Shown: positions 2,779 through 13,319 of the stretch, piece by piece
Layout: the number at the start of each line of letters is the position of its first letter
How positions within the stretch are numbered: the first letter of the stretch is position 1
DNA from: Kofleriaceae bacterium
GTDB taxonomy: Bacteria > Myxococcota_A > Polyangia > Haliangiales > Haliangiaceae
Reading direction: 5' to 3'
Assembly: GCA_965215005.1 (NCBI GenBank)
Contig: CBDCCZ010000006.1
Coordinates: 96,001 to 160,000 of the forward strand
Length of the DNA stretch: 64,000 nt
Notes under the pieces: model-generated
Database searches by the model: none
Told to the model about the DNA's origin: nothing
What the model saw: the letters and a program-made list of their open reading frames with translations, nothing else
Made by a program: the position numbers and the translations under genes

Positions 2779-5700
2779 CTATTTCGGCGTGGCGCTGGCG
2801 GCGCCGGCAATTACCGGCTCGGCGGAGGGCGCACGCGCCGCTGCCGGCTTGCGCTGCCAGCGGACGCCGGCGAGGGCGCGCCAGTCAGGGGTGCCGTAGC
2901 CCTCATCGGCGCCGAGGCCGCCGGCGATGAAGGCCGTCACCGAAGCGTCGATGGCGTAGCTGGCGCCGGCGAGGAGCTCGAGGTGATTGCGGTTGAACCG
3001 ACGCCACAGACGATCGGCCTCGGTGGCTCCCGCCAGGCTGGCGCTCAGCTCGATGGGCGGTCCGCCGCGGTCCTCGAAGCGGTAGCCCACGCCGAGATGC
3101 CAGAACAGCTCGTCATCGACGGTCAAGTCGATGAGCTGGCGCTGCCGACGCAGGCGGTAGCCAAGGTTGACCGCGGTGCGGACCGCGCCAAACCGGCGAC
3201 CGATGGCCAACTCCGGCGCCAGGCTGACGCCATCGCCGCGGAAGTCGCTCGCCGAGCCGAGCGGCGCGGTGACGCCGACGATGAGCGCCAGGTCGGCGCG
3301 GTGGCGCTGCTGCCGCAGGAATTGCACTTTGCTAACCAGGCGCAGATCTCCGAAGCCGCCACTCAGCTCATTCATCGGCGCGCCGGCGATGTCATCGGAG
3401 CCCTGCGATAGCACGACCGGTAGCTCGAGGCCGAGCTGCAGGCGGTCCCACAGCGCCACCGCACCGACTAAGCTGGCGGTGGTCCGCTGCCCGACCAGCG
3501 CGCCCGCGCGGACACGCTCGCCGGCGCTGCCGTCGTAAAGGACCAGTGGATCATTGGCGGTGCCGAGCCACAGACCGAGATTCCAGTGCAGATGCTCAGG
3601 AACCGCGGCCCACTCGACATCGAGCACGCCGTCCCGATCCATGGCCAGACGAAAGCGCTCCACCGAGAACGCATCGCTCTGTTGCGCCTTTGCCGGCGTG
3701 GCCAGTGCCATCACGAGCAGGGCCGCAGCGGCAATGGCCGCACTCCGCCGGCTTCTCAGGACCAGCAGCGCCAGCGCCAGCGCCACGGCCAGGCTCGAAG
3801 GCTCCGATCCGCCGGTGGAGCAACCGCCGCCGGTGACGCCGAAGCGGTCGTGGTAGCCGTCGCCGTTGGCGTCGTCGTCGCAGATGTCGCCGAGGCCATC
3901 GCCATCGAGGTCCTGCTGCGCGCCGTTGTCGGCGCTGGGGCAGTTGTCGAGCGCGTCCGGCACGCCGTCGGCATCGCTGTCCGCGGAGGACTCGTCCCCA
4001 GCATCGCAAGCGTCGCCGACTCCGTTCCGATCGCGGTCGCTCTGGTCCGGGTTGGCGACGTCGACGCAGTTGTCTACGTCATCCTCGATGCCATCGCCAT
4101 CGGCGTCTGGCGTCTCTACCGGCTCCTCGCCGTCGGGATCGCTCGGTTGATCGTCGGACGCGTCGTTGGGATCCCGCTCACCGGCGTCGACGCGGCCGTT
4201 GCGGTTGACGTCCTCGTCGCCATCGGTGACGCCGCCGCCATCGGTGTCGGCGCGGACCGCGCTGGTGGTGGTGCTCGCATGGCGATCGGACACGAAGTAG
4301 CCCGCCGCCAGATTGGTGTCAGCGCTGGGCACGGTCACGCCTCGCTCGGTGCCGTCGAACACGAGATCGTCGTCGCTGTCCGGGTCGAGCACGTTGATCG
4401 CGCCGTCGCCATCGGTGTCCTGGTTCCAGTTCGGCTCCTGGCCATCGATCACGCCGTCATCATCGCTGTCGCCATCCCGCGGGTCGGAGCCGGCGGCGAG
4501 CTCCTCGGCGTCACTGAGCCCATCGCCGTCGCTATCCTCCGGCGGCACGTCATCGTTGGGATCGTTCGGGTCGGTCTCGTGCGAGTCGACCGCGCCATCG
4601 TGGTTGGCGTCTTCGGCGCCATCGGCAACGCCGCCGCCATCGCTGTCGGCGGTGAGTGGATCGGTGGTGGACGCCGGGTCGGCATCCGCGACGAAGGTGC
4701 CTGCCAACAGGTCGGTGCCACGATCCGGCAGGGTGAGGCCGACTTCGGTGCCGTCGAACAAGCCGTCGTTGTCGCTGTCGGCATCGAGCGCGTTGCCGAG
4801 GCCATCGCCATCGCTGTCGGCGGCGGGCGCGGGCTCTTGACCGTCGATGATGCCATCGTCATCCGAGTCGCGGTCGAGTCGGTTGGTGCCGAGCTCGGCC
4901 TCGAAGGCATCGCTGGCGCCGTCGTCGTCGCTGTCGGTGTCGAGGTAGTCCGGGGTGCCGTCGCCGTCGGTATCGACTGGCGGTGTGCTGAGGTCGTCGT
5001 CGCCCGCCTCGATGCGATCGCTTATGCCATCGCCATCGGCGTCGGTGTCGAGGTAGTCGGGGATGCCGTCGCCGTCGTGGTCGCCGGTGCCCTCGTCGAG
5101 GTCGGCGATGCCGTCGCCGTCGGTATCGATGCGCCCGTCGTCAGCGGCGCGATTGGGATCGGTCTCGGCGCCGTCGACTCGGCCGTTGCGATTGGTGTCT
5201 TCGTCACCATCGGGCACGCCGCCGTTATCGCTGTCACGGTCGACCGGGCTGGTGGTGGTCGTCGGATCGCTGTCGGCGCGGAAGTTGCCAGCGCCGAGGT
5301 CGGTGCCCGGCGCCGGCGCGGTGAGGCCGAGCTCGGTGCCATCGCGCAGGCCGTCGCCGTCGGCGTCCGCGTCGAGCGCGTTGATCGCGCCGTCGCCGTC
5401 GGTGTCGTGGTTCCAGTTCGGCTCGTCGCCGTCGATGACGCCATCGTCGTCGCTATCGGCGTCGGTCGGCGAGGTGCCAAACCGGGTCTCCTCGGCGTCG
5501 GACAGGCCATCGCCATCGGTATCGACGGGCGGGGCGTCATCGGCGGCCACCGTGGGATCGGTTTCGCCGGGGTCGCGGGCGCCGTTCTTGTTGGTGTCCT
5601 CGGTGCCGTCGGCCACGCCGCCGCCATCGCTGTCGCGCAGCAGTGGGTTGGTGGTGCGACGCGGATCGGCGTCGGCGACGAACGCGCCAGCGCCGACGTC

Positions 5701-8700
5701 GGTGTCTGCGTCCGGCTCGGTGAGGCCGAGCTCGGTGCCGTCGAGCAGCCCGTCGTCGTCGGCATCCGGGTCGCGGGCGTTGATGAGGCCATCACCGTCG
5801 GTGTCGCTGCTCCAGTTGGGCTCGCGGCCGTCGAGAACACCGTCGTCGTCGCTGTCGGCATCGTGGGGATCGGTGCCGGCAGCGTGCTCTTCCGCATCCG
5901 AGAGGCCGTCGCCGTCGCTGTCGGTGGGCGTCGTGTCATCGCTTGAATTGTTCGGATCGGTGTCGCCGGCGCTGATGGCGCCGTCGTGATTGGGATCTTC
6001 GGCGCCATCGTCGACACCGCCGCCATCGCTGTCGGCGCGGGTCGGATCCGTCGTGGTCGACGGGTCGGCGTCGGCCACGAACGCGCCGACGCTGAGGTCG
6101 GTATCGGGATGCGGGCTGGTGAGGCCGACCTCGGTGCCGTCGAAGATGCCGTCGCCGTCGCTGTCGACATCGAGGGCGTTGATGAGGCCGTCGCCGTCGG
6201 TATCAGTCGTGGCGCCGGGCTCGGCACCGTCGGCGAGGCCATCGTCGTCGCTGTCGCCGTCGCGCGGATCGGTGCCGACGCGTGCCTCGTCGACATCGCT
6301 CATGCCGTCACCGTCGTCGTCTCGATCCCCGGCGTCGCATAGGCCGTCGCTGTCGAGGTCGGGTCCGTCGTTTCGCGGCTCGCTGCGACCCGAGAGGCAA
6401 TCCTCGCAGCCGTCGCGATCTGCGTCGCCGCAGACGAATCGATTGCGCGGATCGGAATCCAGGTCGTCGGCGACACCGTCGCCATCGGCGTCGACCTCGC
6501 CGGCATCGCAGATGCCATCGCCGTCGGTGTCGAGGCCATCATTGGCCGGCTGCGGGCTCCCGGTCATGGCGCAGTCGTCGCACGTGTCGGCGTCGGCGTC
6601 GCGGCAGACCAGCGGATTCGCAGGATCGCGGTCGAGAGCATCGGGGACCGTGTCGCCATCGTCGTCCGGGTCGCCGGCGTTGCACAGACCATCGAGGTCC
6701 GGGTCGTAGCCGTCGTTGTGCGGCGCGGGAGCGCCTTCGATTGCGCAGTCATCGCACAGGTCGGCGTCGCTGTCGCGGCAGCGGAGACGATCGAGCGGGT
6801 CGGAATCGAGCGCGTCGATGACGGTGTCGCCGTCGTCGTCATCATCGCCCGCATCACAGGTGCCATCGCTGTCGGTGTCGAGTCCGTCCATCGCCGGAGC
6901 GCTGGCGCCAGTGACGCTGCAATCGTCGCAGGAGTCGGCGTCGCTATCGCGGCACGCGAAGCGATTCAGCGGGTCGGAATCGCTGGCGTCGACGACATCG
7001 TCGTTGTCGTCATCGGCGTCGCCGAGGTCGCAGAGCCCGTCGCTATCGAAGTCGTCGCCATCGCTGGCCGGCGCGAAGACGCCGCCGACGGCGCAGTCGT
7101 CGCAGGTATCGCCGTCGCTGTCTCCGCAGCGCGAGGCCTGGGTGCGGTCGGTATCGACGTCGTCGGTGACGCCATCGCCGTCGGAATCGAGATCGAGGTA
7201 GTCGGGAGCGCTGTCGCTATCGGTGTCGACTTCTCCCTCGCTGCTGTCGGCGATGCCGTCGCCATCGGAGTCGACGTCGTACCAGCTGTCATCGCCATCG
7301 CCATCCGGGTCGCTGTTGCCGAGCGCCAAGCCGTCGGCGAGCTCGGTCGCGGTGTCGATGCCGTCACCATCGTCGTCCTGATCGCGCCAGTTGCCGATCA
7401 TGTCGAAGTCTGGATCGACGACACCCTCGACCTGGTCGAAGAGACCGTCATCGTCGCTGTCATCATCGAGGGCGTCGATGGTGCCGTCACCATCGGTATC
7501 GGTGCGGAAACCGCCGTCGGTCTCGACGAAATCGTCGATGCCATCGGCGTCGGTATCCGGATCGAACGGGTCGGTGCCGATGGAGCAGGACTCGTCGAAG
7601 GTCGCCAGGCCGTCGAAGTCATCGTCGACCGCCAGCGACAGGGCGTCGACCGACGCGCTGGTGCTGACCGTGGTCTTGACGGCGGCGTAGGTGTCGAGGA
7701 AGGACTCGTTGCCCTTGCCGTCGCCGTCGAAGTTGCCCCAAGCGCGGGCGTTGACGTTGGCGTCGGCCGGATCGGCCGGATTGCCGGCGCTAAGGCCATT
7801 GACGCCGGAGGCGGTGAGGCTCATCTCGCCGTTTGGCATGGGCTCGGCGTCGGCGGCGATCAAGCTGTCGTCCCAGTACATTTTCAGGCCGGTTCGCACG
7901 CCGTTGGCGGCCACCGAGAAGATGCGCATGCCCTCGAAGCTGGTCTCGATGTCGTTGCCGACGAAGTGGAACTCACCGACGTTGACGTAGACGACGCAGT
8001 CATACGACCCGTCCGGAACCGGCGCGCCGCTGTTGTCGGTACCGTTCCACGGCACCGCGTTGGCACCGGCGCTAACCGTGCCAACGATGAGCAGATCGTC
8101 CGGATCGGTGCGGTCGTAGACCGTGTCGCGATCGAGGTCGCAGACCAGGTTGTAGGTGCCGGCGACGTTGGAATCGAACTCGAACTGGCCGGTGCTCACG
8201 CCCGGCACCACGGCGTTGCAGCCGGTGGGTCCACCACGGAAGGCAAAGCCCGTTACCACCGGCGTGAGGGTGCCGTAGCGCGCGATCGCCGGCGGGTTGA
8301 GATACATCGGGTAGTACGGCGTGACCGCGTTACCGGCCACTGGGACGCTCTTGCCGGCCTGAGCGCCATCGACGCCGGTGGCGTTGCTGTTGATGGAGTA
8401 GCCATGGCCGGCCATGCCGTTTAGATCGAGCTCGACCACCGCATCGGTGGTCGGGCTGCCGCCGGGAACCAGCGCAAAGAAGCTGCCGTCGGAGGCGGCC
8501 TCGGCGCCGAAGCTGCCGGCGCTAAACTTCCAGTCGAGCGAGTAGAGGCGGCCCGGCTGAGCCGCGCCGGCGCCGGCGCAGCTCGAGCCGAGGACCGCGA
8601 TGTCCCAGCCGGTGAAGGTCTGCGTCGTGGAAAAGCGCAGCTCGTACGCGCCGGGCAGTCCGGCGGTCGGCGCGACCCGATCGCCCGAGGCAAGAGTGGC

Positions 8701-8973
8701 GATCAAGGTCCCGTCCGGAGCGGTGACCGCCATGGTGCCGGTGCCGGTCCAGGCGATGCACTCGTTGTCGGCGTCGAGGATGTCGACGTAGGCCACGGTG
8801 TTCACCTGCAGGCGCTGCCGAGCGCCCAGCTCCGCGGAGCCTTCCGCATGAGCGCTCGGTTGCCAGCTCATGACGGTGACGAGAGCCGAGGCGACGGCGG
8901 CGCTCAAGGTGCAAGTATGCAGATGCCTGCGAGGTCGATGCGGTCGCGTGGGCTTGTGCGCTGCGATGTTCAT
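2779..8973 (-). CDS. Giant Asp-rich (DxDxDG / thrombospondin type-3-like) surface protein with internal MYXO-CTERM-like tag and C-terminal outer-membrane beta-barrel-like domain
   Basis: N-terminal signal (...WQPSAHA|EG), FlgD-Ig-like WNGTDNSG motif, dozens of DxDxDG repeats, DNC-containing TSP3-like repeats, GGGCSTGG plus TM plus RSRRS, a second hydrophobic stretch ending AKA|QQ, then ~290 aa of alternating beta-strand pattern. Start chosen at MNIAAHK (uncertain). Confidence 0.85.
4130..7620 (-). repeat. Intragenic tandem coding repeats (long DGDG/GTELGLT modules and Cys-containing CDDC modules)
   Basis: About five long units containing DTDGDGxINALD...DGTExGLT...DSDGGGVxDG...TDPN, and about five shorter units containing CxDxDxDxCxDC...DGxCDxG, visible in the translation. 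Confidence 0.85.
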
Positions 8974-9246
8974 GGGGGTCCTCGGCTCGATACCAGCTCG
9001 ATTAGCGTTTGCTCGACCAGCGCTCGTCGGCCCCGCGGTCGTCGTGCGGGGGATATAGGCACGCGTGGTCAGGGTGGGCGGATCCAACCGCCGGAATCGG
9101 CCGCAGGGGCGGCCAGCTGTACAGGCGGCCGCGCTTTTTTCATCGAGGGTGGGGAGCGTGGGGTACCGCAACCCTTGCGCTATCGCTGCGGCATTGGTTG
9201 ACTACCTGGTCCGCCTCTCTCCCACGGTTCCATGGAGGTCGCTGCG

Positions 9247-9522
9247 ATGAGTCGAATGGTTCAATGTGCAAAGCTTCAACGCGAGGCGCCCGGCCTCTCC
9301 TATCTGCCGTTCGACGATGAGCTCGGGCAGCGCATCTATGAGGAGGTTTCCGAGGAAGCCTGGCGCATGTGGCTCGAGCACTCAAAGATGATCGTCAACG
9401 AGTATCGGCTCGACCTAACCAGCGAAAAGGCCCACGAGCTGCTACGTGAGCAGTGCGAGTCGTTCTTCTTTGGTGAAGGCGCGGCGCTGCCGCCCGACTT
9501 CACCGCGCCGCCAGCAAAATGA
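9247..9522 (+). CDS. yggX: Fe(II)-trafficking / oxidative damage protection protein (YggX family)
   Basis: MSRMVQCAKL...ELGQRIYEEVSEEAWRMWLEHSKMIVNEYRLDL; GGAGG RBS before the ATG at 9247; its stop overlaps the next ATG (ATGA). Confidence 0.9.
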   Translation: MSRMVQCAKLQREAPGLSYLPFDDELGQRIYEEVSEEAWRMWLEHSKMIVNEYRLDLTSEKAHELLREQCESFFFGEGAALPPDFTAPPAK

Positions 9523-10964
9523 CGGAAGGTCTGGACACGACGGGGCCTCTAGCAGAGCCGGGCGCGATCGTGCTGGTGTCCTGCTATGAGCTCGGTCACC
9601 TGCCGCACGGCGTGGCCATGGCGGCAGGCTTTCTGCGGCGCGCAGGCTTTGCGCCGGTAACCGTCGACCTGTCCATCGAGAAGCTCGATGACGAAGCCGT
9701 TCGCGGCGCCTCGCTGGTAGCCATTTCGGTGCCCATGCACACGGCGCTGCGCCTCGCAGCGCCACTCATCGAACGCGTGCGTGCGCTCGCACCGGCGGCA
9801 GTCGTATGTTGCTACGGGGTTTACGCGCCGCTCAATGAAGCGTGGCTGCGACAGCTGGGCGTCGACTACGTCATTGGGGGAGAAGCCGAAGACGAGCTGG
9901 TCGCGCTCGCCACGGCTCTAGCCCAAGGTCGGCAGCCAACACCGCAGCTGGTCTCACTCGACAAGGTGCGATTTGCCGCGCCGCATCGCGAGCCGCCCGC
10001 ACTGCTGCAACGCCGCTTGCACAAGCACGCCCAGCTCGACCTCGGCAATGGCCAGCGGCGGCTCGTGGGCTACACCGAGACCACGCGCGGCTGCCTCGAT
10101 ACCTGCCGCCATTGCCCGATCCCGGCCGTGTATGGCGGGCGATTTTTCGCGGTTCCGCGCCAGGTGGTGTTGGCCGACATCGAGACCCAGCTCGCCGCTG
10201 GTGCCGAGCACATTACCTTTGGAGATCCAGATTTCTTGAATGGGCCCGGGCACGGGCTGGCCATCGCCGCCGAGCTTCATCGCCGCTGGCCACACGTCAC
10301 GTTCGACTTCACGGCGCAGGTGACGCACCTACTGCAGCAGCGTTCGCGGCTCCAAGAGCTGCCGGCGATGGGCTGCGCGTTCGTCGTGAGCGCGGTGGAA
10401 TCCCTAAGCGATACAGTGCTGGCTGCGCTGAAGAAGCGCCACCGTCGCGCGGCCGTCGAGGAATTGTTCGCTCTGGCTGACCAAGCGCATCTGGTGGTGC
10501 GGCCCACCTTCGTGACGTTTACGCCATGGACCAGCTTGGATGACGTGCGCGAGCTGGCTGAGTTTCTGGCTTGCTGGGGACTGGTCGATCACGTCGACCC
10601 CGTGCAGCTCTCGATTCGCTTGCTGGTGCCGCCGGGGTCGCTGCTGCTCAAAGCCGACGACACCCGCGGCGCCTTTGGGCCGCTCGACTCCGCCGCTCTC
10701 ACGCATCGATGGGTTCACGAGGATCCGCGCGTGGATGCGCTACAGCGCGCCATCGCGGCGCGGGTGGCGCTCGCTGCGCAGCGAGGCGATGACGCCCTCG
10801 ATGATAGTCACGCCGTGTTTTCCGCGATTCATGGGCTGATCTACGAGGCCCTTGGACAATCGCCACCAGAGCTGGTGATCCCGCGGCGCCGGGTGCCGCG
10901 GGTCACCGAGCCGTGGTTCTGTTGAAGCGAGCCCACCGAGAGCCAGTTCGGCTCTCTCGTTTGA
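9519..10964 (+). CDS. B12-binding-type radical SAM protein with probable C-terminal selenocysteine (CUAEP/CCAEP-tail family; tail here is C-U-S-E-P)
   Basis: CxxxCxxC (TRGCLDTCRHC) and N-terminal SCYELGH region. The ORF track stops at TGA 10923-10925 after EPWFC, but read-through gives U-SEPTESQFGSLV with a stop at 10962-10964, and a hairpin follows the UGA. The radical SAM call is firm; Sec recoding is inferred. Confidence 0.82.
10926..10961 (+). promoter_or_regulatory. Putative bacterial SECIS element
   Basis: Upper stem GAGAGCC (10938-10944) / GGCTCTC (10950-10956) with loop AGTTC (G at position 2) starting 19 nt after the UGA; lower stem AGCGA/TCGTT. Confidence 0.65.
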
Positions 10965-10965
10965 T

Positions 10966-12210
10966 CTACAAGAGTGGCGCAATGAAGAACTCGAGGGCGG
11001 CCGCGGCGCGGCGCAGCGCGTGGGTCACCGCGGCGCTGTCCGCGCCGTCGGCGAACACAAAGCCCATGTACGTGTTTCCTTCCGGCAGCGGCACGACGTG
11101 CTCCCCCAAACGCGCCGTGAGCACGACGTCGCGGATGAGCGGCATCACGGCCGCCGCGTCGATGCCGTCGATGCCGCGCAACACCCCGGCTTTCGGCACC
11201 GGCAGCATGTAAACGCCGCTGGCCCCGGAGCGCCGGCCCGCGAGAAGCTCGCCCACGTCGCGCCCAATGGCGTGGGCCAACAGGACCTCCGGCAGCGAAA
11301 CGCCCGCGAGCTCGAGAGTGCGGCCGCACAAGCCACCGATCGGCCGCGCCGCTAGCTCCAGGACCACCGGCTGCCCGCGATGCAGGCGCAGCTCGGCGTG
11401 AATGGGACCATTGACGACTCCAATGGCGCGGGCCGCCGCGGCCACCGCAGCAATGATCGCGGCTTGCTCGGGCGCGGAGCGCTGCGACGGCGTGACGTAG
11501 ATGGTTTCTGCGAACACCGGCCCCTCCAGCGGATCTGGTTTATCGAAGACGGCAATCGGCACCAGCCGCTCATGGTCTACCAGCGCCTCCACCGCGACCT
11601 CGTCGCCGTGCAAATATTCTTCGATCAAGATCAGCGCCGCGGCAGCTGGATTTTTGGCCTCGAGCTCTGGGTTTTCGAGCAGCTGACAGAGCCGCTGCAT
11701 GCGCGCCGCGAGCTCGCTGGAGTCATCAGCGCGCATCACGCCACGGCTGGCCGACAAATGCAGCGGCTTGATGACCACCGGAAAGCGCAGTGCCTCGGGC
11801 AAGCGACGGCTCTGACGCGGCACCACCGCAAACCGCGGCTGCGCGCATCCCGCTGCCGTGAGCGCCTGCCGCAGGCGCTGCTTATCGGCAGCCGCGCAGG
11901 TTGCCGCGACGGTGCCGTACCCGAGCCCCAACACCTCGGCGGCGCCAGCGGCGATGACTGCCGCATCCTCATCGAGGGCCAGAATTCCGGCCAGCGGTTT
12001 GGCGCTCGCGTGCTCGACGATCTGCTTCACGGCGCGCGTGGGATCGCGATAATCGAGCGGCCACGCGCCCTCGGGCCACAGCTCGGCCAGCTGATGACAG
12101 CGATCGGTGCCCACTGCCAATTCAATCTGCAACTGCGCCGCCGCACGTTCGAAGTCGCCAAGCGCATAGGCGCGCTTGGACGCGAGCAACAAAGCGACAG
12201 GCGCTGGCAT
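10966..12210 (-). CDS. ATP-grasp ligase (amino-acid-ligase-like)
   Basis: DKQRLRQAL, FPVVIKPLHLSASRGV, LIEEYLHGDEVAVE, HAELRL, LELAARPIGG. Start at MPAPVALL. Confidence 0.88.
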   Translation of the reverse strand: MPAPVALLLASKRAYALGDFERAAAQLQIELAVGTDRCHQLAELWPEGAWPLDYRDPTRAVKQIVEHASAKPLAGILALDEDAAVIAAGAAEVLGLGYGTVAATCAAADKQRLRQALTAAGCAQPRFAVVPRQSRRLPEALRFPVVIKPLHLSASRGVMRADDSSELAARMQRLCQLLENPELEAKNPAAAALILIEEYLHGDEVAVEALVDHERLVPIAVFDKPDPLEGPVFAETIYVTPSQRSAPEQAAIIAAVAAAARAIGVVNGPIHAELRLHRGQPVVLELAARPIGGLCGRTLELAGVSLPEVLLAHAIGRDVGELLAGRRSGASGVYMLPVPKAGVLRGIDGIDAAAVMPLIRDVVLTARLGEHVVPLPEGNTYMGFVFADGADSAAVTHALRRAAAALEFFIAPLL

Positions 12211-12236
12211 TGCCGCTGGTTTACCATCGCCGTTGC

Positions 12237-13319
12237 ATGCTGTCGCCCGGTGCCGAGTCGGTGGCGCTATTCCGGCAATTCCCAACGCTGTGCTCGCGTC
12301 TGCCGTGGGTGCATCTGGGCGCGTGGCCCACGCCGGTCGAGCCGCTGCGTCTGGCCAGCGGCTGCCAGCTGTGGGTCAAACGCGACGATGCCTGCAGCAG
12401 CCTCTACGGCGGCAACAAAGTGCGCACGCTGGAGGCAATGCTCGGCGTTGCCCGCGCATGCGGCGCGCAACGCATCTGGGCCACCGGCGCCTACGGCTCG
12501 AACCACGCGGTTGCAACCCTGGCGCACGCGCCCCGCGCCGGTCTGCAGGCCGGGGCCATCCTATTTCCGCAGCCAAGCTCGCCGCCGGCGCGTGCCAACC
12601 TCTCGGCCGCGCTCAGCCTTCGCCCTCACCTGCTCGCGCTCGCCAGCATTCTCGAGCTGCCCCTGGCCATGCATCGCGTTCGCCGAAATAGCCACGACTA
12701 CGTCATGCCTCCCGGTGGCGCCACGACCGAAGGCACCTTCGGCGCTCTCTCCGCGGCCTTCGAGCTCGCTACGCAGGTCGCCGCGCGCGAGTGCCCCCTG
12801 CCTCGTCGAGTCGTTATCGCGGTCGGCTCGACCTGCACCACGGCCGGTCTCCTTGCTGGACTTCACGCCGCTGCTCGCATGGGAGTGTGGCCGGGCGCGG
12901 TGCCCATCGTGCACAGCGTGCGGGTGACGCCGTGGCCAATCACCAGCCGCGCGCGCATCGCCTGGCTCGCGCAGCGCACGCTTCATCGACTCGAGCGGCT
13001 CGTCGGCGTCACGCTCGGTGTGAGCTACCGCGCCTTGCTGGCCAACCTCGTCGTCGATCGCCGCTTCATCGGCCGCGGCTACGGCCGTGCCACCCAAAGC
13101 GGTCGCCGCGCCCTCGCCCGGTTCGCCGACAGCGGCGCGCCCCCATTGGACTTGGTGTATTCGGCAAAATCCGCGGCCGCGCTACTCGCTTTGGCCAATC
13201 GCTCCCGCGGCCCACTCCTATATTGGGCAACCAAGTCGTCGGCCCCTCTGCCCATTGCAAGCGCCGCTGATGTCGCCGTCGCACCGGCGCGCGCCCGCCA
13301 TTGGCTCGAGCAGCCGTAG
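12237..13319 (+). CDS. PLP-dependent ACC deaminase / D-cysteine desulfhydrase family enzyme
   Basis: PTPVEPL, LWVKRDD, YGGNKVRTLE (PLP lysine), GAYGSNH, AVGSTCTTAG, LDLVYSAK. Confidence 0.85.
   Translation: MLSPGAESVALFRQFPTLCSRLPWVHLGAWPTPVEPLRLASGCQLWVKRDDACSSLYGGNKVRTLEAMLGVARACGAQRIWATGAYGSNHAVATLAHAPRAGLQAGAILFPQPSSPPARANLSAALSLRPHLLALASILELPLAMHRVRRNSHDYVMPPGGATTEGTFGALSAAFELATQVAARECPLPRRVVIAVGSTCTTAGLLAGLHAAARMGVWPGAVPIVHSVRVTPWPITSRARIAWLAQRTLHRLERLVGVTLGVSYRALLANLVVDRRFIGRGYGRATQSGRRALARFADSGAPPLDLVYSAKSAAALLALANRSRGPLLYWATKSSAPLPIASAADVAVAPARARHWLEQP

Follow-up and report, generated by a model that had tools for sequence, protein, structure and literature searches.

A radical S-adenosylmethionine (SAM) gene of a Kofleriaceae bacterium probably encodes a selenoprotein that standard gene calling truncates at an in-frame TGA codon. 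The gene lies on the + strand of a 64,000-nt stretch of DNA (assembly GCA_965215005.1, contig CBDCCZ010000006.1, positions 96,001-160,000), hereafter called the window, whose own numbering is used for all coordinates. With a probability of roughly 0.85, the TGA at 10923-10925 is decoded as selenocysteine (Sec), and the gene at 9519-10964 encodes a 481-residue member of the NCBIfam family NF040546 whose C-terminal tail carries a vicinal Cys-Sec pair. The reading is carried by family membership, the alternation of Cys and TGA at this codon among homologues, the conservation downstream of it, a covarying hairpin at a fixed spacing behind it, and a complete set of Sec machinery in the genome. NF040546 is already curated by NCBI as a selenoprotein family, to which the window gene adds one more member. 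The finding is a rediscovery, and its main effect is the correction of a truncated annotation; the residue lost by truncation at 468 residues is the most reactive one of the enzyme.

The ordinary call of the open reading frame (ORF) covers 9519..10925 (+) and yields 468 residues with the C-terminus ...RVTEPWFC, in which the last Cys codon, TGT at 10920-22, is followed directly by the TGA at 10923-25. Read through and decoded with the TGA as U, the tail is U-SEPTESQFGSLV, and the next stop, a TGA at 10962..10964, is the predicted true end of the gene. The full-length gene at 9519..10964 (+) comprises 481 residues plus the stop, with Sec as residue 469; Cys468 (TGT) and Sec469 (TGA), at 10920..10925, form the defining C-U pair of the tail, and both columns are invariant among the aligned homologues when U is read as C. 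A single nucleotide (10965) separates this stop from the stop codon (TAG, 10966-68) of a convergent ATP-grasp ORF. The positions given in the first-pass annotation for the ORF end, the read-through tail, the second stop and the 1-nt gap all hold. Its proposal of a Sec-containing enzyme with a vicinal Cys-Sec pair that ORF calling cuts short is likewise supported: the database copy of the window protein (P0002) is the truncated form of 468 residues, and close relatives from Haliangium and Kofleriaceae carry the NCBI name "CUAEP/CCAEP-tail radical SAM (seleno)protein".

The family of that name, to which the first-pass annotation had referred, exists as NF040546. The read-through protein scores 593.3 bits against its curated cut-off of 500, and the alignment spans residues 17-478 and profile positions 1-467 of 468, thus running through the tail extension. 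A search of the genome with the same profile returns one gene only, at 586.8 bits and with 1 TGA inside the match. The protein consists of an N-terminal B12-binding-like (Rossmann) domain (residues 18-130, 9570..9908; PF02310, 36.8 bits, cut-off 32.1) and a radical SAM core (residues 187-350, 10077..10568; PF04055, 40.5 bits). The CX3CX2C cluster motif of the core lies at 10092-10115, where the codons were checked, and all 36 aligned homologues keep its residues C192, C196 and C199. The family tail C-[U/C]-A-E-P appears here as WFC-U-S-E-P, with Ser at a position occupied by Ala in at least 90% of the 36 sequences. NF040546 is large and spread over many phyla; in the literature searched, no reaction is assigned to it, and one preprint alone names it, as an uncharacterised family (bioRxiv 10.1101/2022.07.06.499078). 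A 2026 review of prokaryotic selenoproteomes, as far as its accessible text goes, lists other radical SAM selenoproteins, TIGR04167 and TrsS, and appears not to list this family, given that text searches for CUAEP, CCAEP and NF040546 gave no match in it (PMC13188914).

A comparison of homologues at the TGA codon, as the first-pass annotation had suggested, covers 87 homologous loci, 7 of them found by scanning 401 genomes from the phylum of the window (its own genome included) and 80 by scanning one genome per species. The codon is TGA in 62 loci and TGC or TGT (Cys) in 22, and 3 loci are cut off by contig ends; the sequence past the codon is readable in 61 of the TGA loci and masked in 1. Across 36 aligned sequences, C468, U/C469, E471 and P472 do not vary, and at least 90% of the sequences agree at A470 and Q476; conservation past the codon runs through [A/S]-E-P-[T/N/S]-x-x-Q. 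Homologues ending at the Cys with no conserved residues downstream, or a genome devoid of Sec machinery, had been named beforehand as the outcomes that would contradict Sec; neither was found.

A decayed allele, in which a Cys codon (TGC or TGT) mutated to TGA and left the enzyme truncated in this lineage, would need a one-base change only, and Cys forms do occur in the same phylum, in 4 of its 7 loci. This explanation is hardly credible, since most loci, from many phyla, have TGA (62 of the 84 assessable ones), always together with a covarying hairpin and an intact downstream frame, neither of which a loss-of-function allele would keep under selection. The nearest relatives of the window gene (L022, L024, L026 and L082) moreover share both the TGA and the CUSEP tail.

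The CUSEP spelling itself, presented in the first-pass annotation as a variant, does occur, and its novelty was overstated. It is found in 5 of the 61 readable Sec tails, namely those of the window and of these four relatives only, while CUAEP is the spelling in the other 56 Sec tails and CCAEP that in all 22 Cys forms; within a curated family it is a trivial one-residue variant confined to the clade of the window. Several CCAEP proteins (L038, L043, L049, L059, L074 [Thermogemmatispora], and L020, L021, L025) show a longer C-terminal extension with further Cys residues, arranged as a CC pair (e.g., ...CCGVGH, ...ACCPGS or ...NCCPV) or, in L021, as two single Cys. These extra thiols may compensate for the missing Sec.

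The predicted upper stem-loop of a bacterial Sec insertion sequence (SECIS) lies inside the coding tail at 10938..10956 (+). A 7-bp stem, GAGAGCC (10938-44) with GGCTCTC (10950-56), encloses the loop AGTTC (AGUUC in the RNA, 10945-49), which begins 19 nt after the UGA; together with a lower stem, the fold has a minimum free energy (MFE) of -16 kcal/mol. SelB carrying Sec-tRNA(Sec) would bind this hairpin and hold off termination. The 7-bp stem and its G-containing 5-nt loop had been reported from the window sequence, and both are present; comparison adds that the helix covaries. Among 60 Sec-form sequences, which align without gaps over 42 nt from the TGA, columns 16-22 pair with columns 28-34 in 90.5% of cells, compared to 72.9% in column shuffles, and 0 of 500 shuffles reach the observed value. 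Changes on both sides of the helix occur in 73 cells, compared to 22.4 expected, with compensatory changes at 6 of the 7 pairs, and pairing falls to 44-53% when one arm is slid by 1-3 columns. Such compensation is visible even among the nearest relatives, where GAGAGCC/GGCTCTC in the window corresponds to GCGGACC/GGTTCGC in L022 and to GAGCGCC/GGCGCTC in L024. No variation is seen at columns C22 (the closing base of the stem), A23, G24 and T26, and the loop follows the pattern A-G-[G/U]-U-N.

The folding of the 27-nt segment further separates the two forms of the gene: the median energy is -10.6 kcal/mol for 61 Sec forms, compared to -4.8 kcal/mol for 22 Cys forms (Mann-Whitney p = 2.6e-8, a value that overstates the contrast because the sequences are related). 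The better fold of the Sec forms indicates that the hairpin goes with the TGA, not with the encoded peptide. In some Cys forms, a well-folding hairpin persists at the SECIS position, namely in L059 (7393+12..+39; -13.7 kcal/mol), L038, L043, L049 and L050 (-8.9 kcal/mol), which would fit a recent replacement of Sec by Cys. The lower stem, also part of the first-pass description, does form in the window sequence and is not conserved in the family; with only 53% pairing across the 60 sequences, it was dropped as a part of the SECIS element. The bacterial model of bSECISearch, as given in the consulted part of PMC13188914, asks for a 3-9 nt loop on a 4-16 bp stem, 16-37 nt from UGA to loop, a G among the first two loop nucleotides with G or U usually next, and an MFE of at most -7.5 kcal/mol. 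The window hairpin lies within all of these published constraints, so that the SECIS check proposed in advance came out in favor of the element.

The genome carries selA (541.5 bits), selB (313.1 bits) and selD (299.6 bits), all above their cut-offs, as well as a tRNA-Sec of 75.1 bits (gathering score, 47) to which ARAGORN assigns the anticodon TCA, which answers the call of the first-pass annotation for a search of the Sec machinery. The assembly consists of 62 contigs, with 92.8% completeness and 2.2% contamination. The selD match (G000:C11:57587-58495, L010) lies inside an open frame of 774 residues, far longer than SelD, possibly through a fusion, or simply because frames stay open over long distances in GC-rich DNA.

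Several points weigh against the decoding of the TGA as Sec. All of the Sec genes, selA, selB, selD and tRNA-Sec, lie on contigs other than that of the window, in an assembly with the fragmentation and contamination just mentioned. Taken alone, the window hairpin is within chance (z = -1.58; 15 of 200 shuffles fold as well), and its significance must therefore come from the comparison among homologues. A scan of 10700-11200 against Rfam, with E values up to 10, gave chance-level matches only and no SECIS family, and selenium at 10923-25 is a prediction from sequence. The chance-level fold also suits the view that the TGA is a real stop, that the protein ends at Cys468, and that the hairpin between the two convergent genes is a terminator shared by both; standard ORF calling reads the gene in this way, as does the 468-residue database copy. 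That view is nevertheless very improbable. Coding conservation continues past the TGA in the 61 readable Sec tails and in the 22 Cys forms, and the alignment to the NF040546 profile extends over the tail. Where the following gene runs in the same direction, the hairpin still sits in an unchanged register to the UGA; no U-run follows it, and the genome has the Sec machinery. Decoding as Sec remains the preferred reading.

As for the reaction of the enzyme, the second-best NCBIfam match after NF040546 is ArsL (NF040542), with 263.9 bits, an E value of 2.9e-78 and coverage of profile positions 2-407 of 423, while all other named families score at most 65 bits. By this profile comparison, ArsL is the closest characterised relative. 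It performs a rare, noncanonical radical SAM reaction that forms a C-As bond. According to the accessible parts of two preprints (bioRxiv 10.1101/2024.02.01.577332; 10.64898/2026.04.29.721666), ArsL has the canonical CX3CX2C motif, cleaves SAM (at the C-gamma-S bond) to methylthioadenosine and a 3-amino-3-carboxypropyl species, and joins the latter to As(III), for which the RCCLKC tail provides three Cys ligands; without the tail, product formation is lost and SAM cleavage is kept. In the alignment of 36 NF040546 sequences, the only invariant Cys or Sec positions are the three cluster ligands and the tail pair, which indicates that this family has no auxiliary cluster site; C286 is conserved in at least 90%.

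The AlphaFold model of the window protein is confident, with a mean predicted local distance difference test score (pLDDT) of 91.2 and a predicted template modeling score of 0.90; pLDDT falls to 83 for residues 461-470 and to 58 for residues 471-480. The nearest solved folds found by Foldseek are AprD4, MgmA, TsrM, OxsB, MiaB, CysS and TokK, a general class-B-like fold. The predicted fold fixes the architecture and does not discriminate between the chemistries proposed below. A sequence search of the PDB returned no ArsL structure; the best match was MgmA (9ccb) with 36 bits.

The convergent neighbor of the radical SAM gene encodes an ATP-grasp enzyme of the L-amino-acid-ligase type (10966..12285, -; PF13535, 98.6 bits; LAL_C2, PF18603, 54.1 bits), whose start is probably the ATG at 12208-12210 (Met26), judging from where the alignments of its homologues begin. 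All NCBIfam matches of the ligase lie below cut-off; among solved relatives, the L-amino acid ligase BL00235 (3vot) is closest with 108.5 bits, and BacD (3vmm) scores 52 bits. BL00235 prefers Met or Leu as the N-terminal substrate, which was given no weight in the assessment. Neighboring genes were determined by clustering of the 87 loci together with tblastn. Of the 49 loci flanked by 3 kb or more on each side, 30 have the ligase, 23 have a YggX homologue, 23 have both and 19 have neither. In five of five genomes picked from the last class, the ligase is present elsewhere in the genome (E values of 3e-56 to 8e-86). Within the phylum, the 7 of 401 genomes with the radical SAM gene are precisely those with a ligase orthologue (E <= 1e-30), which in two of them lies on a different contig. 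The link between ligase and radical SAM enzyme is thus close to obligate. Carriers of the module are labelled as soil bacteria of at least 10 phylum-level lineages.

The ligase has a subfamily-specific residue, Cys320 (11326-11328, -), in an IGGLCGR loop. Among 39 homologues, this position is Cys in 38 and an in-frame TGA in 1, a Tectomicrobia locus (L042, 7428-8651), and the residues aligned to it in BL00235 and BacD are not Cys. Both paired enzymes accordingly carry a thiol or selenol that is absent from their ordinary relatives, and in some lineages the ligase, too, is probably a selenoprotein, as the codon in L042 suggests. In 2 of the 5 genomes with an unlinked ligase gene, Nfu-type iron-sulfur carrier genes adjoin it (L125:2744-4249 and L123:2870-3502), and in L125 it also stands beside a cobalamin-independent methionine synthase gene. 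The ligase orthologue in the genome of L027 (G401:C16:66489-67759, L127) appears as two matches split at query residues 302/304, which could be a frameshift or an assembly error.

Directly upstream of the radical SAM gene lies a YggX-like gene for Fe(2+) trafficking and protection from oxidative damage (9232..9522, +; NF003817, 118 bits, cut-off 74; PF04362, 117.8 bits), whose stop codon TGA (9520-22) overlaps the start codon ATG (9519-21) of the radical SAM gene in the sequence ATGA (9519-9522). A YggX homologue is found near the radical SAM gene in 38 of the 86 other loci. Gene order differs among lineages and phyla: in the window, yggX precedes the radical SAM gene and the ligase is convergent; in a second arrangement, the radical SAM gene is followed by the ligase, with yggX further on; in a third, found in 11 loci mostly labelled Methylomirabilota/NC10, the order is ligase, NfuA-like gene, radical SAM gene. 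YggX is present in 129 of the 401 genomes of the phylum, mostly as a single copy, and looks like a housekeeping gene beside which the module sits.

Relatedness to ArsL and the co-occurrence with the ligase suggest a multistep mechanism, which is put forward tentatively and at less than even odds. Here, SAM would be cleaved at the single CX3CX2C [4Fe-4S] cluster, as in ArsL, and its 3-amino-3-carboxypropyl group would be transferred to a soft acceptor atom, which the flexible Cys-Sec tail would hold in the place of the As(III) on the RCCLKC tail of ArsL. The resulting unusual amino acid would then pass to the ATP-grasp ligase with its own invariant Cys, giving a dipeptide-like product, and supply or repair of the iron-sulfur cluster would fall to the adjacent YggX or, in other phyla, to the NfuA-like protein. 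In its broadest form, the proposal describes a widespread two-enzyme pathway to an undiscovered amino acid of the 2-amino-4-X-butanoate type, whose C-heteroatom bond would be made on the Cys-Sec clamp by ArsL-like transfer, and which would be handed to the ligase Cys/Sec for ligation into a dipeptide, while a dedicated iron or iron-sulfur donor (YggX or NfuA) would keep the cluster alive in aerobes. Taken as a whole, this pathway is speculative and rather unlikely. The strict pairing with an amino-acid ligase nevertheless offers a concrete two-enzyme system for reconstitution, in which the role of radical SAM enzymes with a CU tail is directly testable.

A selenoprotein with canonical chemistry is possible as well, if doubtful. 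In this case, a 5'-deoxyadenosyl radical would act on a small molecule or peptide, possibly in a cobalamin-dependent alkylation, and the Cys-Sec pair would form a redox selenenylsulfide that donates electrons or resolves an intermediate. Sec is most often found in redox sites, the B12-binding-like domain is present, and AprD4, MgmA, TsrM, OxsB, CysS and TokK are among the closest folds. Against this, named families of B12-dependent radical SAM enzymes reach at most 65 bits, compared to 264 for ArsL, and the best of them has a cut-off of 360, so that the score expected of a class B methyltransferase is not reached. ArsL shares the N-terminal domain, its profile being aligned from position 2, and the accessible text on ArsL makes no mention of cobalamin (bioRxiv 10.1101/2024.02.01.577332).

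The recurrence of iron-sulfur carrier genes in three forms, as YggX in 38 of 86 loci, as an NfuA-like gene directly upstream in 11 loci and as Nfu-type genes beside the unlinked ligase in 2 of 5 genomes, would suit a sulfur or selenium relay. The tail would then carry a persulfide or perselenide, or a cluster would be sacrificed, for the formation of a C-S or C-Se bond, and Nfu or YggX would rebuild the consumed cluster. NfuA rebuilds the sacrificial clusters of LipA and MiaB, a point given no weight in the verdict, and MiaB is among the structural neighbors. Such a relay is clearly unlikely, since the NF040546 family lacks extra Cys residues for an auxiliary, sacrificial cluster and its sequence relatedness is to ArsL and not to MiaB or LipA.

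The ArsL-like transfer, the chemistry proposed first, has its own points on the other side. The window protein is a relative of ArsL and not a member of its family, as 263.9 bits stand against a cut-off of 450, and the comparison is one of profiles. The two enzymes share the two-domain layout, a single canonical cluster motif, a Cys-rich C-terminal tail with a vicinal pair and the lack of an auxiliary cluster. Their tails differ, with C-U-x-E-P in the window protein and R-C-C-L-K-C in ArsL; they do not align, and the former offers two chalcogen ligands, one of them Sec, compared to three Cys in the latter. Among the annotated neighbor clusters (those present in at least 6 of the 87 clustered loci), none is arsM, arsQ or another arsenic gene, the partners being the ATP-grasp ligase and YggX or NfuA, and an arsenic-specific role thus has no support from gene context. 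The predicted fold resembles cobalamin-dependent methylases and the methylthiotransferase MiaB as well. As YggX is widespread, its adjacency is weaker evidence than the co-occurrence of the ligase.

An ORF at 12210-13319 (+), divergent from the ligase and overlapping the 5' end of the ligase ORF, encodes a pyridoxal phosphate-dependent enzyme of the D-cysteine desulfhydrase/1-aminocyclopropane-1-carboxylate deaminase/cysteate sulfo-lyase family, with all NCBIfam matches below cut-off. It was dropped as a pathway member, being conserved in only 3 of 86 loci, all nearest relatives (L026, L082 and partly L022). In 7 loci (L039, L045, L052, L057, L069, L070 and L078) labelled Vicinamibacteria, Vicinamibacterales or unclassified Acidobacteriota, the upstream neighbor of the radical SAM gene is a divergent gene for a POT-family peptide transporter, which is a weak hint of a peptide product or else lineage synteny. 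The ORF at 2779-9171 (-) encodes 2130 residues; it starts with a signal-like stretch, is full of aspartate-rich repeats, many of them DxDxDG-like, and has a hydrophobic segment ahead of a C-terminal domain.

Compared with known systems, the predicted SECIS element resembles the bSECISearch model in its position directly 3' of the UGA and inside the ORF and in its loop, with G at position 2 followed by U; it differs in having no Rfam family and in a lower stem that is not kept in NF040546. The radical SAM protein shares with the other members of NF040546 the B12-binding-like domain, the CX3CX2C core, the W[F/Y]C[U/C]xEP tail and the alternation of Sec and Cys at one codon, and is set apart from all but its four nearest relatives by the Ser in place of Ala after the putative Sec (CUSEP). 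Its partner ligase shares the ATP-grasp_4 and LAL_C2 domains with the L-amino acid ligases BL00235 and BacD and differs from both in the invariant Cys320, probably Sec in one relative.

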